From the IMG/VR virus record IMGVR_UViG_3300020044_005099, positions 1 through 27,435 of that record: DNA of 27,435 nt; one strand, given 5' to 3'. Positions 2,310 to 20,422 of this stretch are shown here, in pieces; the stretch's first letter is position 1; each line of letters starts with the position of its first letter. The notes beneath the pieces were generated by a model, which was given only the letters and a program-made list of their open reading frames with translations, was not told the DNA's origin and ran no database searches. The translations under genes and the position numbers were made by a program. Origin of the DNA: a virus. Its lineage: Duplodnaviria > Caudoviricetes.

Positions 2310-2663
2310 TTAATACTCGAAAAACACATCTTGCGGCAATGATTCGTCAATGTCGCAGTGGAAGAAGTTTTTGGCCTGATTGTAGCCAATTCGGCGAAAT
2401 CCAGCAGCGTAAAGACCTTTTAAGATTGCGAACCTTGCCTGACTGCTAGGGCATGCAATATCAACCGCCAAGCCGCGCAAGTGAGAGCTGTTGGGCGTGC
2501 CGCCGACATTCCTGTTATGGTTCGCGCATCGTGCGCCGGAAGTGATTACAAAAGGCAATGCAGCAACCTCCCGCGCCTCATTCAGCTTAATCAAAAGCTG
2601 CCTAGTGATATTCATTCCGCAACCACATCGGCACATCGTTTCAGAATCACTGAAGTAGCTCAT
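2310..2663 (-). CDS. Endolysin, peptidase M15A-type Zn peptidase
   Basis: CRCGCG, ITSGARC..HN, SSHLRGLAVDI (H-x6-D) and FFHCD motifs. Confidence 0.9.
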   Translation of the reverse strand: MSYFSDSETMCRCGCGMNITRQLLIKLNEAREVAALPFVITSGARCANHNRNVGGTPNSSHLRGLAVDIACPSSQARFAILKGLYAAGFRRIGYNQAKNFFHCDIDESLPQDVFFEY

Positions 2664-3121
2664 TCACGCAATCTCCATAAGTCTGAAACTGTCGGGCTAT
2701 ACCCATCAATAAAGCGCTTGGTTACGTGCCCAACAAGCTCAGAGCAATTATAGCTGTACTTGCTGCCTAAGCTAATTCTAAGCAACCTGAAGAGCCACAG
2801 AGCGCCTATGGTGGCAAGCATGTCGTATTCTGTTTTGCTAGTAACTAGCAGCTCGCACTGCTCGCGCCAGGATTCGTTACTTGTCCAGACTTCTTTTGTG
2901 CGCCAAGCTGAGTAACGTTTTTTAAACACGTCTGCCGGCGTCTTGATAACGCCTTTACGCCTGCCAATTCTGCCTTTGTAGCGACCGCCGACAGACTCAT
3001 AAACATAATCACCATCCAAGATGGCAACGTGCGACCACGGCGACACATCAAAAAACCGAATCAGCAGCCCGACAAATTTCGAGCTGCGGCCAAAGATTAA
3101 AGTGACTTTATGCACGGTCAA
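2660..3121 (-). CDS. Permuted papain-like (NlpC/P60, YaeF/YiiX C92-type) amidase
   Basis: N-terminal SPWSHVAI (His), central YD and C-terminal YNCSELV (Cys): permuted catalytic order. Confidence 0.8.
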   Translation of the reverse strand: MTVHKVTLIFGRSSKFVGLLIRFFDVSPWSHVAILDGDYVYESVGGRYKGRIGRRKGVIKTPADVFKKRYSAWRTKEVWTSNESWREQCELLVTSKTEYDMLATIGALWLFRLLRISLGSKYSYNCSELVGHVTKRFIDGYSPTVSDLWRLRE

Positions 3122-15483: not shown

Positions 15484-15908
15484 ACAACCAACTTCCCGTA
15501 ATTACCAGAGGCCAGAAACGGGCGCATCAGCATATCCAGTTCTGGCGCTCTTGGCTTAACTGTTGGTGTAGTGCCATCTTGGTATTCGATTTCCTCTTCG
15601 AGTACATCCGCTTTTTGCTTGGTACGCTTAACCACACCTCCGGCAATAGACGCATAATCCAGAGTCAACCGACCAGCCTGCTGAAGCTCAACAGCCTTTA
15701 ATGCGGCCTTGTTGATTGCTGCCAACTCCGCCGTTTCGATTCCTGGCAGTTTGTATTCGTCCGCAAGATTGTAAAAAGTGTTGATAAAGTCAGCGCTCAA
15801 AACCAAGTCTGATTCAATTTTGCCGACATCAATAGTAATGCCGCGAGCGTCTGCATAGGTTTGATATTCTGATTCGGTAACGTAGCTGTCAGTCGCTAGT
15901 GTCGGCAT
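15480..15908 (-). CDS. Head-tail adaptor (DnaT-like phage family)
   Basis: DSYVT..EY..YA.ARG N-terminus, K.DVLE.EY and LMRPFL motifs; GGAGG RBS before ATG 15908. Confidence 0.8.
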   Translation of the reverse strand: MPTLATDSYVTESEYQTYADARGITIDVGKIESDLVLSADFINTFYNLADEYKLPGIETAELAAINKAALKAVELQQAGRLTLDYASIAGGVVKRTKQKADVLEEEIEYQDGTTPTVKPRAPELDMLMRPFLASGNYGKLVV

Positions 15909-16182
15909 TTTTAGCCTCCAGTAATTCAAGCTGCTTCTTCAGGAGGCGGCGTTCAGTATATTTTGCAAGAAAGTACATGATAGCGGCAGGGATTGAAAAC
16001 AGGCTTGCAATGGTTGCCATTGTCCATGTTGTTGGGTCAAAGATGCGGGAGAATTCACCGCCAACTGTACCAATCCACATTAAAACAATGGTCACGGCCC
16101 CACCAACCCACTCAGCGAATCTACTTAACGCCGGATGGTCAATCAACGCCTGTCCGATTTGATGCGCGATGTCGTTGTTCAT
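15889..16182 (-). CDS. Two-TM holin-like membrane protein
   Basis: 97 aa, two hydrophobic helices, charged C-terminal tail (ERRLLKKQLELLE). Confidence 0.55.
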   Translation of the reverse strand: MNNDIAHQIGQALIDHPALSRFAEWVGGAVTIVLMWIGTVGGEFSRIFDPTTWTMATIASLFSIPAAIMYFLAKYTERRLLKKQLELLEAKNADTSD

Positions 16183-16652
16183 CTAATTCTTTCTCTTGCC
16201 TGTTGTATCGCCTGATGAGATACCCACAGTATACGATACCGCCAAGCGAGAATCCAATACTGAGCAGCGCCAGATAATATGCACTCAAGTCGCCGCCCTC
16301 CAATAAGCAGAATTAGCACGTACAAATCCACCGCGCCGACGATGTAACTGAATGAAGTATAATACATTGTTTCCGTTAACGGAAAAGCAAAAGCATCAAC
16401 GGCGGCAAGCCAATATAAGCACCCGCTCAACAACAAAGCATTTCGAATACTTGATAAAAGTTTGATAAATACCGCTCCAGATGCGGCAAGGATTAATCCG
16501 GACAGGCAGTTGTAGTAAATTGGATTGTCGATATACGCAAAGGCAAGCTCAGTAGATAAATAACCGGCAACGATGATTAACCCTTGCCGGTTGAAATATG
16601 AAGCCGCAAGGAATGCAGCTATCATTATGGTGTCTGCCTGAGTGGCGGTCAT
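16179..16652 (-). CDS. Multi-pass (about 5 TM) membrane protein of unknown function
   Basis: Successive hydrophobic segments over residues ~9-118; ATGA overlaps at both ends. Confidence 0.75.
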   Translation of the reverse strand: MTATQADTIMIAAFLAASYFNRQGLIIVAGYLSTELAFAYIDNPIYYNCLSGLILAASGAVFIKLLSSIRNALLLSGCLYWLAAVDAFAFPLTETMYYTSFSYIVGAVDLYVLILLIGGRRLECILSGAAQYWILAWRYRILWVSHQAIQQARERIR

Positions 16653-16963
16653 TTGCTATCCGGAGCGCGGAAACCTGCGTCGTAAAGCTCGCCAAGCGCA
16701 TCTGTCATTTTCTTGCCAGACATCCAAGGATTCACAGCCAAAGCATCCTCAATAAACTTTTCGCGCTCTGTGCGAAGTTTGCGGAATTTAGTGCCATGCA
16801 GGATGCAAGTAATCGCCCACTCAAATCCTGATTTGTAAGCAACGGTCGCGTGGTCAATAATAATGCATTCAACAGGCGCATTTGCCTCAGCGATGTTCAT
16901 GGCCTCGCATCTAACGCCAACAGGAGGCACCGCACTGCCCCAATCACTACTCTCCCAATCCAT
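16649..16963 (-). CDS. Phage hypothetical protein (W....PPVG..CE...TEREKFI...LYDAGFR type)
   Basis: GGAG RBS 8 nt before ATG 16963; motif pattern recalled from phage accessory proteins. Confidence 0.7.
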   Translation of the reverse strand: MDWESSDWGSAVPPVGVRCEAMNIAEANAPVECIIIDHATVAYKSGFEWAITCILHGTKFRKLRTEREKFIEDALAVNPWMSGKKMTDALGELYDAGFRAPDSK

Positions 16964-16980
16964 CTCATCCACTCCAAATT

Positions 16981-17017
16981 AAAAACCCACCAACAGCATA
17001 CACCGTTAGCGGGCTTT
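16981..17017 (-). terminator. GU-rich intrinsic terminator candidate after the micropeptide gene
   Basis: GCCCGCTAACGGT/GCTGTTGGTGGGT stem pairs fully only on the minus strand (G-U pairs), followed by TTTT. Confidence 0.6.
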
Positions 17018-17036
17018 GTCTAACTCATCGGATGAG

Positions 17037-17096
17037 TCACTTCTTATCCGGCTTTTTCTCGCCGCTGCCTTTCGGTTTTTGCTTTTTAGTTGCCAT
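17037..17096 (-). CDS. 19-aa Lys-rich micropeptide MATKKQKPKGSGEKKPDKK
   Basis: GAGG RBS, ATG 3 nt after the upstream stop; shares 9 identical residues with the 55-aa protein C-terminus. Confidence 0.7.
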   Translation of the reverse strand: MATKKQKPKGSGEKKPDKK

Positions 17097-17099
17097 TTG

Positions 17100-17417
17100 T
17101 TACCTCACATATACGGGTTCAGTTAGCGACGGATTCATGCGACTTGATAGCACATATCCATCATCATAAGTTGAGCTGTAGCCGATTATCTCAGGGAAGT
17201 ATCGACCGACAGCAAGCGCGGTAGTGTCGCCAATTGATACAGTCAAAGACTCGCCATCAACAAACAGCTTGGTCGGTTCTGTGTCTGTAGCGTAAGTCTC
17301 GCCGCCAATCCTAAACTCTATCCGGTCAAAATCAGCTAGGGAGAATCCATCGGCAAACGTGAAGTTAATCACCACCGGATTATCGCGGCCTTTGATGAAA
17401 AAGTTAGCGGCAGTCAT
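17100..17417 (-). CDS. Small beta-sandwich protein, likely fibre adaptor (BppU-N-like)
   Basis: I.KGRDN...F and L..G.Y..EI pattern; co-transcribed with the 765-aa protein. Confidence 0.55.
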   Translation of the reverse strand: MTAANFFIKGRDNPVVINFTFADGFSLADFDRIEFRIGGETYATDTEPTKLFVDGESLTVSIGDTTALAVGRYFPEIIGYSSTYDDGYVLSSRMNPSLTEPVYVR

Positions 17418-17419
17418 AA

Positions 17420-17842
17420 TTACACCGGCGCGATTGTCAGCAGGTTAGCATTCATCACCCAGCTGAATGACTCGCCAACCGCCGGAGAAATGGTAGAGCC
17501 ATAATCCCAGAAGCCAACAAGCTCATCGTTTGTCGCTGTGTCGTTATACATAACAGCATAACGGAATGGAGCGATTGAGCCGCCTGCCGCTGTCCATGTC
17601 GCTGTTGTATTTACCGCAGCAGTGTAAGTTCCTGATGTCTGGCTTGATGATGCTACTGGGACAGCCTGACCACCAGCTGTATAGCCATTGCCACCAGCAA
17701 TCTCGGTAATGTTAGCCTTGACAGTATTTGTCGCAACTGGCGCTGTGTTGGTCAGAATTACCTTAAATGTGTCTGCACTCATGTCGTGCTTTTTCTCTGC
17801 TACAGCCTCAATGAAGCTGTTAAACCGCTGGAATGTTGCCAT
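17420..17842 (-). CDS. Conserved phage structural protein (DTFKVILT...GNGYTAGG...YAVMYNDT...L.G.WDYG)
   Basis: GAGG RBS; motif pattern recalled from virion proteins accompanying head/tail fibres. Confidence 0.7.
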   Translation of the reverse strand: MATFQRFNSFIEAVAEKKHDMSADTFKVILTNTAPVATNTVKANITEIAGGNGYTAGGQAVPVASSSQTSGTYTAAVNTTATWTAAGGSIAPFRYAVMYNDTATNDELVGFWDYGSTISPAVGESFSWVMNANLLTIAPV

Positions 17843-17865
17843 CTTTTTAAACCCTCATGTATAAA

Positions 17866-20163
17866 TTAATTAGCGAATGCCGCAGAAATAGGCACGACAC
17901 CGTAAGACATAGTATAACCGTTTATTCTTACGCTTACAGCGCCCGAATGAGTCAGCGAAGCAATGCCGCCAGAATAACTATATTGCGCACCTGATGCAGA
18001 TAGCAGCCTGTTAAATAGCATCCCAGCATTAGCTGAAGAATAACCTAAGCTGACGCCATCTGCGACTAAAGTATATGTTGCCGCGCCTGTGTCGTATGTG
18101 AGCAATGCAGCGCCGCCAGCATGAGACCATTCAGAGCCGTCAGCCTGCAACAGACTATTGAGTAACAGCTCCGCAGCAGCTGATTGATACTGTAGCGATT
18201 GACCGTCAGCTTGCAGTACCCTGTTCAGCAGTGTTGATGCCTCGCCACCTGAATAGCTCCAAAATGCGCCATCGGCGTTTAGCGTATAGACTGTGCCAAC
18301 AGGGGTATAAGTCAGATTGGCGTCATCGCTAAAGTAATTCCACGCAGCGCCATCAGCATTCAGGGTGTATGTGGCGCCTGTCGTATAAAAACTAGCGATA
18401 ATACCATCACCAACCGCATCAGCAGCAAGCGCTGTTTCCGTATCTGTTTCGTAGTGAATTTTTTGGTAAAGCGGCCAAATCTCCGGCACTATGTCTGACA
18501 CGTTAGCGCTTGCCGCCGCAATGTCTTTAATCCATTGGCGCACGTTGGCATAAGGCGTCGTGTTCTCACCTGAAATTGCCACCAGCATACTATCTGCACC
18601 GGTCAGAGTTTTTAGCTGGTCGATCACCACGTTGTAGCGCGATTTAAAATCGGCCTCTGCGGTTTCTAGTACTGAGTCGCCCTCACCGATCCAAGTTGCT
18701 ACAGCTTCAACGTGACCTGTTGGAGACTCTGCATTATAAAAAGTTAGCATGCGGTTATTCAGTGCCTGACCAGGTTGCCACTGCGACAGCGATGTGCCAC
18801 CAGCGGCAACGCCGATAAACAGCACGGGGCATTCCAGCGCTGCGGTCAGTTGTGTGGCTAACAGCGGGAATATTGAGCCATTGACAGTATATGTATCAAA
18901 TGGATCTGCTGTTGCGACAACTAACGTATTGCTTTCAATGGCGCGCTTATACCACCAGCCAGCAGGGCCAGTGTACGTTTGCGCGTTGTTGGCACGACCT
19001 GAGAAGTTTGACTGCCCCCAGAATAAAAACTTGGCGCCCACTGCGATATTTGCGTGAGTATCTGTTGCCGTTACAAAGTTAGATACTCTGACATCGACAG
19101 CACCTACACCGACTGCCGCACCTGTTAACGTGCCTGAAAATGTGCCGGTTGGCACTGCGTCGATAACCTGCCATGCCCCACCGTTAAACCGCGCCTCGAT
19201 AGTCGCGCCAGCAGTTAAGTCAGTACAAGTGCCGTTGATCGCAATGTTGCCGGTGTTGGTATCCTTATCGCGGGCCAGAAACACGTTAGCGGCTGGATTA
19301 ATCATCAGGATAGTAGGGTTTGACGTTGTGACGATGCCTCTGTCGTTTCCCGATGGGCCTGTACCATCAAGCACGCCGCCAGTTGCAGCGGTGAATATAT
19401 CGTTTGCGTAGTCAGTGAATGCCGCAGCCGTTACACCAGTTAGCGCCCCAGTGCCTGATGCGGTTGAGTCACCGGATGCCATAAAACTAACCGTGGCTGC
19501 TGTGGTGGCGCCAAAAAAATCAACAACGCTATTGCCAAATGCAACGACGTTTTCAATGACGGTTCCTGCTACATCTTTGCGCATACCGCAGTAAGATGCG
19601 GTCGTGCCCGCCTCAATATTGCAGCCAGCTATCACGACATTTCGAGCTGTTACTCCTGCGAATGCTGCTTGGATGCCAGCGCGGTAAGCCCCCTCGACAA
19701 CCGTGTTTTCAATCAGTACCGTGCCGCCGCTGACAGCATTCTGCACGCCATGACGGCCACCACGCAGCCAGCAGCCGCGAATAGTTTGATTTGATACTGC
19801 TGAGCCGGTGTTAATCAGTGACTGTGTTGGGCTGGTGCTGGTGCCGCGCACCTCGATATTTTCAATCGTAAGCTTTGCAGCTCCAGCGCTCGGGATATTG
19901 ATCCCGCCACCAGCTGAAATTATCGCGTGCGGTGCTGTAGGGTCAGTCGGGTCAAACTCTAAGCCAGCAGCTGCACGAATAACCAATTCCATTGCATAAT
20001 TGCCGGAAGTGGCAAGGCCGGTACTCAATCCGCCCGTTGTGGTGATGATTTCGCCAATGTATCTGTCGCCAGCTCCACCGGTGCGCGCAGCAAACCAAGT
20101 CTGATAGTTGGCAAAATCAGCACCTGAACCGGATGCGCCTATCGTTTTAATTACATCAGCCAT
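17866..20163 (-). CDS. 765-aa modular virion fibre/spike: beta-helix-like N-terminus, Ig-like linker, SGNH/sialate-O-acetylesterase-like domain, C-terminal repeats
   Basis: GGAGG RBS before ATG 20163; FWGQSN, A.GGTS...W, WIGEGD and IHY esterase blocks; six L.ADG..W.YSG..A.L repeats. Confidence 0.75.
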   Translation of the reverse strand: MADVIKTIGASGSGADFANYQTWFAARTGGAGDRYIGEIITTTGGLSTGLATSGNYAMELVIRAAAGLEFDPTDPTAPHAIISAGGGINIPSAGAAKLTIENIEVRGTSTSPTQSLINTGSAVSNQTIRGCWLRGGRHGVQNAVSGGTVLIENTVVEGAYRAGIQAAFAGVTARNVVIAGCNIEAGTTASYCGMRKDVAGTVIENVVAFGNSVVDFFGATTAATVSFMASGDSTASGTGALTGVTAAAFTDYANDIFTAATGGVLDGTGPSGNDRGIVTTSNPTILMINPAANVFLARDKDTNTGNIAINGTCTDLTAGATIEARFNGGAWQVIDAVPTGTFSGTLTGAAVGVGAVDVRVSNFVTATDTHANIAVGAKFLFWGQSNFSGRANNAQTYTGPAGWWYKRAIESNTLVVATADPFDTYTVNGSIFPLLATQLTAALECPVLFIGVAAGGTSLSQWQPGQALNNRMLTFYNAESPTGHVEAVATWIGEGDSVLETAEADFKSRYNVVIDQLKTLTGADSMLVAISGENTTPYANVRQWIKDIAAASANVSDIVPEIWPLYQKIHYETDTETALAADAVGDGIIASFYTTGATYTLNADGAAWNYFSDDANLTYTPVGTVYTLNADGAFWSYSGGEASTLLNRVLQADGQSLQYQSAAAELLLNSLLQADGSEWSHAGGAALLTYDTGAATYTLVADGVSLGYSSANAGMLFNRLLSASGAQYSYSGGIASLTHSGAVSVRINGYTMSYGVVPISAAFAN

Positions 20164-20206
20164 GCGCCCTCCATTTGATGCCAATAGTTTAGCGGATTAT
20201 TGCGCC

Positions 20207-20233
20207 AATAAAAAGGGCGCAATTAAGCGCCCT
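20207..20233 (-). terminator. Intrinsic terminator after the 55-aa gene
   Basis: AGGGCGC-TTAATT-GCGCCCT followed by TTTTATT. Confidence 0.85.
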
Positions 20234-20254
20234 GATTAAACATGCAGAAACATA

Positions 20255-20422
20255 TCAGCCTTTAGGCTTTTGCTTCTTTGTGGCGTCTTCGTCAACAGGT
20301 GGGCCTTCTTCAGCTGGTGCAAATACAGCATCCACGATTTTAAAGCCTTTGCCAACCAATTCAGCCTTTCGCTCTGCGCTTACAGGATGCTGTTCGTAAA
20401 TAACTTTTTTCTCTTTAGACAT
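20255..20422 (-). CDS. 55-aa capsid-associated small protein (MSKEKKVIYEQHPVSAERKAELVGKGFKIVDAVFAP...ATKKQKPKG)
   Basis: GAGG RBS; directly after the capsid gene; YE.HPVS.ERKAEL...G.KI.DA.F pattern recalled from post-capsid genes; missed by the ORF track. Confidence 0.8.
   Translation of the reverse strand: MSKEKKVIYEQHPVSAERKAELVGKGFKIVDAVFAPAEEGPPVDEDATKKQKPKG

Follow-up and report, generated by a model that had tools for sequence, protein, structure and literature searches.

A basic peptide encoded twice in a siphophage genome, in a post-capsid protein tail and at the head of a candidate lysis-control cassette

Introduction

The arbitrium system joins a secreted precursor and a cytoplasmic tetratricopeptide repeat (TPR) receptor to the control of lysis versus lysogeny, and the Rz1 gene of phage lambda, overprinted inside Rz, provides a precedent for embedded genes in lysis cassettes. 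Arbitrium mediates peptide communication of Bacillus phages (PMC13389391), and the lysis inhibition of T4, which involves the antiholin RI and the holin T (PMC11413866) and has also been reported for ICP1 and N4, has been proposed to be triggered by phage DNA (PMC8385771). Here we describe a peptide encoded twice in a 27.4-kb virus record (IMG/VR IMGVR_UViG_3300020044_005099; hereafter, the window), once at the C-terminus of p55, a 55-amino-acid (aa) post-capsid protein, and once in a 19-aa micropeptide. The open reading frame (ORF) of the latter, or micro-ORF, heads an unannotated four-gene cassette encoding a basic peptide, a five-helix protein, an overlapping one-helix protein and a holin-like protein (genes 1 to 4). 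The record contains only a structural and lysis region, with siphophage terminase, portal, scaffold, major capsid protein, connector, tail, endolysin and spanin genes on its minus strand.

The cassette resembles T4 lysis inhibition in presenting, in Gram-negative phages, a small membrane or periplasmic regulator adjoining a holin, with a proposed path from superinfection sensing to lysis delay. RI, however, reaches the periplasm by means of a signal peptide and binds a large holin domain there, whereas the cassette comprises a five-helix protein, an overprinted one-helix gene and an allele-specific peptide. The gene 4 product, unlike the T4 holin, has no large soluble domain, and no match to T4-family antiholin or holin PHROG or Pfam profiles was obtained for the cassette proteins scanned. 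The likeness to arbitrium lies in a short phage peptide encoded beside a presumed receptor and present in lineage-specific variants, but the cassette lacks a signal sequence, its presumed partner is a membrane protein, its output is holin-like and a second peptide copy resides on a head-module protein. In place of a secreted pro-peptide there are micropeptides devoid of hydrophobic segments, and in place of a TPR-type receptor the coupled gene encodes five hydrophobic helices. By analogy, the cassette would work like T4 lysis inhibition with an arbitrium-like key, yet it fails the defining sequence features of both. As in lambda Rz1/Rz, a small +1-frame gene with its own ribosome-binding site is embedded in another gene, but here the enclosing gene codes for a polytopic membrane protein, and the embedded one for a single-helix protein ending in a basic tail instead of a lipoprotein spanin. 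Finally, p55 shares its profile match, usual position and basic tail with post-capsid proteins of PHROG 16180 and 19159, but differs in having a tail that repeats the start of a separate micropeptide and varies in step with it. This co-varying copy appears to be the novel element here; the function of the cassette is what we infer from sequence.

The twice-encoded nonapeptide

The nonapeptide ATKKQKPKG is encoded on the minus strand at 20258-20284, where it closes p55 (...DEDATKKQKPKG before the stop codon), and at 17067-17093, as residues 2-10 of the micropeptide (MATKKQKPKGSGEKKPDKK before the stop codon), whose ATG lies 5 nucleotides (nt) behind a GAGGT Shine-Dalgarno sequence. The features involved are as follows.

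20255-20422, minus strand: p55, 55 aa, directly after the major capsid gene, with a conserved body of about 35 aa and a variable basic tail
20258-20284, minus strand: nonapeptide copy 1, p55 C-terminus, preceded by Asp at the place of the initiator Met of the micro-ORF
20214-20233, minus strand: terminator-like hairpin after p55 (fold z = -2.7)
17100-20184, minus strand: accessory genes between the copies, encoding a 772-aa SASA-esterase/beta-helix protein (Pfam) and 140-aa and 105-aa proteins; exchangeable, outside the cassette
17067-17093, minus strand: nonapeptide copy 2, residues 2-10 of the 19-aa micropeptide
17037-17096, minus strand: micro-ORF, 19-aa basic peptide, cassette gene 1, with Shine-Dalgarno sequence at 17102-17106
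16975-17035, minus strand: long hairpin with U-run after the micro-ORF (fold z = -5.7), not picked up by the terminator scan

Apart from ATKKQKPKG, no 8- or 9-mer recurs when the window is translated in all six frames, and in 20,000 composition-preserving shuffles of the p55 tail and micropeptide the longest common substring never exceeded 7 aa. Among 2.9 million IMG/VR contigs, a degenerate pattern for sequences coding TKKQKPKG occurred in four, three of which contained it twice, each pair consisting of a p55 tail and a micro-ORF. The single match in L084, where the ORF has no start, was rejected as chance, as were a MATKQKP string out of frame within the tape-measure gene of L111 and weak, N-terminal matches of Staphylococcus phages to L006.

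Five of the nine codons differ between the copies, all synonymously. Since five silent changes out of five are improbable in the absence of selection (P about 0.0001-0.001), selection is indicated to act on the peptide. The codons shared (4/9 in the window, 3/8 in the second matched lineage, B, described below) correspond to chance expectation (3.8 and 3.3), the longest exact nucleotide run between copies is 8-9 nt (window and lineage B comparisons) and no DNA similarity was found outside the peptide-coding stretch. An insertion-flanking direct repeat was therefore discarded, the DNA identity not exceeding the level imposed by the peptide, and no contig fusing both copies through deletion was seen among the joints listed for sequencing-run contigs. 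These results agree with a first-pass annotation of this DNA, which had described one peptide written in different codons some 3.2 kb apart, a terminator after each gene, and selection on the peptide rather than on the DNA. Both copies carry the codons it gave, the p55 stop and the micro-ORF start are 3158 nt apart, hairpins follow both genes, and chance-level codon identity together with silent changes in relatives supports its view of selection.

The p55 gene is an ordinary ORF, matching PHROG 16180 (E 3e-11) and PHROG 19159 (E 1e-10). In most loci its relatives come after the capsid gene, and one from Erwinia phage Gungnir39 is annotated as HeH/LEM domain-containing. Within the family, the tail takes the form of a variable basic segment or of an additional helical domain. 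No variant of the tail stretch (20258-20284) is listed in four sequencing runs from three studies, and the window and L081 share DNA-identical tails on bodies that are 53% identical; the tail is thus inherited separately from the body. Contigs from sequencing runs present a swap point at 20290-20312, at which different bodies join one invariant tail, and these bodies go with different capsid types (62-96% identity among relatives). Twenty homologs from a protein collection add other versions of the tail that keep the register, among them APVKQKPKG, ASNKQKPKG, APTKQKPKG, AAKKQQKPKG, TKKQQKPKG and ATKKQKPRG, although this search was seeded with a matched protein, and hence biased towards such tails, and the homologs come without DNA context; the tail of one (P0080), TKKQQKPKG, equals the micropeptide start of L112.

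Co-variation of the two copies

Both p55 and a micro-ORF were present in 27 loci (22 distinct pairs), with record G001 (L068 and L134/L142) as a 28th. The p55 tail matches the micropeptide of its own phage in 8 of these 28 records, which form two lineages. Lineage A (window, L081, L082, L083) carries ATKKQKPKG or TKKQKPKG(S) at both sites, with a match of 8-9 aa, and lineage B (L140, L160, L162, G001) carries SNSKQKPK at both, with a match of 8 aa. Between a tail and the micropeptide of the other lineage only 5-6 aa are shared. In the p55 tails of both lineages Asp replaces Met at the micro-ORF start position. The five-helix membrane proteins of the two lineages share 19% identity and are not sisters in the membrane-protein tree, in which A groups with L112, L144 and L116, and B with the unmatched L095. 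The 4-aa match (KPTR) between the L095 tail and the C-terminal part of its micropeptide was considered too short to count.

Matched tails stay fixed on p55 bodies that are only 53-55% identical, and unmatched tails differ between phages with an identical micropeptide (L007/L008/L011; L010/L012). The gene sets between the copies vary among matched phages, with spans of 3158-4573 nt, and the match therefore does not track the fibre gene.

The first-pass annotation had proposed looking for co-variation in relatives, and the copies do co-vary between lineages A and B. Two of its explanations fared less well. A relic of the duplication that inserted a fibre module is not supported, as the intervening genes differ among matched phages. 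The suggestion that the micropeptide mimics a capsid-protein tail is at odds with the presence of the micropeptide before a membrane gene in all 38 loci that have one, including phages lacking p55 or the match. Because the micropeptide is found throughout and the p55 copy only in certain lineages, the sequences indicate the opposite direction, with the p55 tail as a lineage-specific derived copy. The relevant partner module of the micro-ORF is the membrane/holin-like cassette downstream.

The four-gene cassette

The loci used for counting were chosen manually, one per contig, excluding duplicate loci and the fragments L114, L127 and L129; the micro-ORF of each was likewise selected manually from candidates. 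Membrane genes were detected with two profile types whose sequences are not significantly related and which are grouped by shared layout. A membrane gene of either type was present in 38 of the 39 loci examined. A short basic ORF lies directly upstream of it in 36 of these 38, and in the window and L112 one inserted gene separates the two. The remaining components in the window are listed below; none of its cassette proteins was assigned to a Pfam or PHROG family.

16649-16972, minus strand: inserted 107-aa gene between cassette genes 1 and 2, with a weak match to PHROG 3483
16179-16652, minus strand: gene 2, five-helix membrane protein, with conserved D7, D86, T95, Y98 and D109 (68-sequence alignment)
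16139-16288, minus strand: gene 3, hidden single-helix gene, 49 aa, in the +1 frame of the 3' end of the membrane gene, with its own GGAGG
15889-16182, minus strand: gene 4, holin-like membrane protein, 97 aa, without family match; weak holin/haemolysin matches in the same slot elsewhere

Most micro-ORFs have a Shine-Dalgarno sequence, and many overlap the start codon of the membrane gene. Synonymous and replacement substitutions number 6:0 between L082 and L083, 6:1 between L096 and L116, 2:0 between L010 and L012 and 2:3 between L007 and L131, such counts being meaningless for pairs with indels. With position, Shine-Dalgarno sequence and synonymous excess conserved in relatives, the micro-ORF behaves as a real gene, as the first-pass annotation had held. 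A hairpin like that of the window separates micro-ORF and membrane gene in L082 and L083 (z = -3.7 and -3.5), and none is found at loci where the two genes overlap. The 107-aa insert is missing in close relatives, and sequencing-run contigs skip 16654-16977 or 16625-17037; at this spot, relatives and run contigs carry no such insert or other inserts.

The gene 2 protein has five hydrophobic helices (AlphaFold pLDDT 90, 68 sequences), with basic loops at 21-23, 64-70 and 120. On the opposite side lie conserved D7 (97% D/E), D86 (96%), E94, T95 and Y98. Because basic loops of membrane proteins face the cytoplasm under the positive-inside rule, the protein is predicted to be N-out/C-in, with its acidic face in the periplasm. 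Foldseek returned no match in the PDB at E <= 0.001, searches of the PDB with the structure gave generic helical bundles only, and the best VIA match was a designed helical bundle (Z 12.1, rmsd 3.1, 119 aligned), within the unspecific range of the tool. The ESM Atlas contained only unnamed viral clusters, below 0.9. Intramembrane aspartyl proteases of the GxGD type have two membrane Asp residues, the second within GxGD; in the gene 2 protein D7 and D86 are conserved, but D86 lies within WLxAVD. Broad membrane-protein alignments proved too diverse to support pattern scans.

A +1-frame ORF with its own Shine-Dalgarno sequence, one helix and a basic tail was found in 37 of 37 complete membrane genes (38 examined; the count has no chance-rate baseline). 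The GGAGG of gene 3 coincides with GGR codons of the membrane protein. As an alternative, the region may support a programmed +1 frameshift adding a sixth helix. Across loci, the fourth slot holds a membrane gene of 85-125 aa, with weak holin or haemolysin matches in three cases: gp32 of Pararheinheimera phage KLER1-1 (PHROG 20 holin, E 0.016; PF16080, E 0.12), L001 (PHROG 24402 holin, E 0.0014) and gp26 of Pseudoalteromonas phage HS1 (PHROG 937 haemolysin, E 0.0011).

Cassettes in cultured phages

Similar cassettes occur in cultured phages of Pararheinheimera, Pseudoalteromonas, Edwardsiella, Klebsiella, Pectobacterium and Vibrio, and in four of them (KLER1-1, PEi21, KpV52 and PEAT2) the cassette adjoins endolysin/spanin genes. 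KLER1-1, the sole cultured-phage match of the window membrane gene and a weak one (E 0.2), has the cassette directly before another membrane gene, followed by endolysin and spanins. In HS1 it precedes the terminase genes, away from endolysin and spanins. A fold search with gene 2 returned two unnamed viral proteins at the top and also a protein of Edwardsiella phage PEi21 (TM 0.68, E 0.22), taken from its 143-aa length to be ORF-50, which has no sequence similarity to the membrane profiles. PEi21 presents the same four-part layout back to back with a SAR endolysin and spanins, and KpV52, PEAT2 and Vibrio phage 367.14 share this layout. A search with ORF-50 reached 78 phage records, 64 of them of Klebsiella. 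The basic unit of the micropeptide is present three times in PEi21, as DNA-identical repeats (L187, AP013057, 27644-27769), twice and diverged in KpV52 (L204, NC_041900, 30839-30955) and once in PEAT2.

The cassettes of PEi21 and KpV52 are annotated wholly as hypothetical and offer a holin candidate for these myoviruses. The text available for the cassette-bearing Klebsiella phage vB_KleM_KB2 states that its authors found no holin gene (PMC10276810), that for KpTDp1 names spanins and endolysin only (PMC11672853), and that for HS1 mentions neither holin nor transmembrane genes (PMC5498523); supplements may annotate the cassette genes. No description of the cassette was found in the literature searched, subscription journals and supplements lying outside the search. 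In one metagenome contig (VFQM010000154.1) the same phage region appears twice, about 44.5 kb apart (L144 and L146), probably as a tandem or circular assembly; it combines a different capsid family with the same cassette. Scanning metagenome contigs for the membrane protein gave no matches, and the lone match among genome contigs (L151) was weak and probably spurious. The membrane profile found nothing in five records that encode distant relatives of p55.

Proposed function and alternatives

What the sequences establish is that the cassette exists and sits beside lysis genes in four cultured phages, that both copies are under purifying selection and that the match is specific to each lineage. 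That a copy should remain letter-perfect and yet follow its model through change is easiest to understand if both copies bind one selective partner, and the co-variation of the copy on p55 argues, on sequence evidence, that the peptide itself is recognized. The five-helix protein is the candidate partner because it always accompanies the peptide and because its acidic face suits a Lys-rich ligand; lysis timing is the likely output, as the cassette ends in a holin-like gene and neighbors lysis genes in the four cultured phages. Hence, both copies may act as the same ligand for the five-helix protein, tuning lysis timing via the holin-like gene, a reading that we hold to be evenly poised between right and wrong. 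Removal of Met would leave the micropeptide with the same first residue as the p55 copy, and the Lys-rich key would bind the conserved, acidic and putatively periplasmic face of the five-helix protein, with the one-helix protein relaying to gene 4 or acting as its antiholin. Where the key would come from is a more doubtful matter. It could be sensed from outside, the free micropeptide being released by lysing neighbors and the p55 copy arriving with a superinfecting virion to bring about lysis delay, which is possible but on the doubtful side. Action inside the producing cell, the supply of p55 reporting head assembly, is rather unlikely. A fuller version would be a kin-specific lysis-control signal of Gram-negative phages, in which lysing neighbors release a basic peptide, the five-helix protein of infected cells serves as its periplasmic receptor and holds back the holin by way of the overprinted one-helix protein, tandem copies (PEi21, KpV52) raise the signal and other lineages graft the key onto a head protein carried by virions of their own kind; we offer this only tentatively, as somewhat unlikely in its entirety.

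Several observations weigh against the shared-ligand reading. In 20 of the 28 records the tail is unmatched, with longest shared runs of 2-4 aa, and no second copy of at least 6 aa was found outside the micro-ORF in seven unmatched IMG/VR records scanned over their full length (G010 to base 39,800 of 41,424), KpV52 and PEi21, so that the p55 copy is dispensable for the cassette. The two matched lineages provide a single independent contrast, and both lineage B copies use the same Ser codon families (TCN, then AGC), the trace expected of copied DNA. The micropeptide lacks a signal for export, and its counterparts in HS1 and KLER1-1 are acidic in part. No solved relative of p55 was found that would place it in the virion. 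The gene 4 protein of the window has no holin match, and the matches in its slot are weak, those to Pfam falling below the cut-off. About 13 kb separate the cassette of the window from its endolysin gene, which adjoins another small membrane gene (2047-2307).

The two-lineage contrast and the dispensability of the copy elsewhere lead us to keep as main rival a relic of copying, in which one or two copying events carried the micro-ORF 5' end into the 3' end of p55, yielding a generic Lys/Pro-rich DNA-binding tail whose match is preserved by ordinary purifying selection and linkage. The overlap of p55 and micro-ORF in L001 and L024, with the genes adjacent in the simplest layout, would have given occasion for it, and variable basic tails or extra helical domains in the p55 family, a tail region that is a swap point for bodies, the frequent absence of the match and the Ser codons of lineage B, explicable by a short copied tract, all fit this account. 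Against it stand the lack of residual DNA similarity outside the peptide and the fixity of matched tails where unmatched ones drift. Moreover, in the KQKPK core the lineage B tail differs from the L083 tail at one of five codons but from its own micro-ORF at four of five, which is not like a wholesale recent copy of the latter. We judge such a relic to be a realistic explanation, though a doubtful one.

A reading based on the first-pass annotation, with the micropeptide as a free decoy that competes with a capsid-associated motif of p55 for docking or for triggering defence, would account for the exact, co-varying identity and for the position of p55 after the capsid gene. It is nonetheless improbable, given that the micropeptide always travels with the membrane gene and keeps its register even where p55 is missing (L112, L116, L144) or has an unmatched tail. 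A cis-acting leader, coupling or attenuating translation of the membrane gene, with an inert product and a tail match that is incidental, would explain the stop/start overlaps at many loci and the terminator-like hairpin between both genes in L082 and L083. It leaves the co-varying copy in another protein unexplained, however, and the unrelated gene inserted behind the micro-ORF in the window and L112, together with the conservation of amino acids rather than codons (L082/L083, L096/L116), makes it more improbable still. Low complexity of both segments would favor a chance match in lysine-rich sequence, which the first-pass annotation had also listed, but the shuffles, the rarity of the coding pattern and the recurrence of the match with another peptide in a second lineage reduce its likelihood to almost nothing.

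If the kin-signal reading is true, Gram-negative phages would possess in this cassette a system of lysis timing or communication keyed by a peptide, and lineages A and B supply two natural alleles for a direct swap comparison. At minimum, the cassette adds three overlooked genes and a holin candidate to many phage genomes, including a group in which a published study had found no holin.

Other features of the window

Freshwater metagenomes were the runs containing about a third of the sampled words of the region, and no RNA data set was among the runs listed as containing it. The 772-aa accessory protein (17866-20184, minus strand) combines beta-helix and sialate O-acetylesterase-like (PF03629) domains and repeats a YTLNADGA motif (18288, 18369); its first part is 91% identical to an L082 gene with a different C-terminus. 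The 140-aa/105-aa gene pair recurs in L144, a phage without p55 match. Between endolysin and spanin, the minus-strand gene at 2047-2307 encodes an 86-aa membrane protein without family match, a second holin candidate. The endolysin gene is preceded by a 153-aa gene (2660-3121, minus strand) matching PHROG 1128 (E 7e-6), the product of which shows a His...Cys pattern that we take to be typical of permuted papain-like peptidases.

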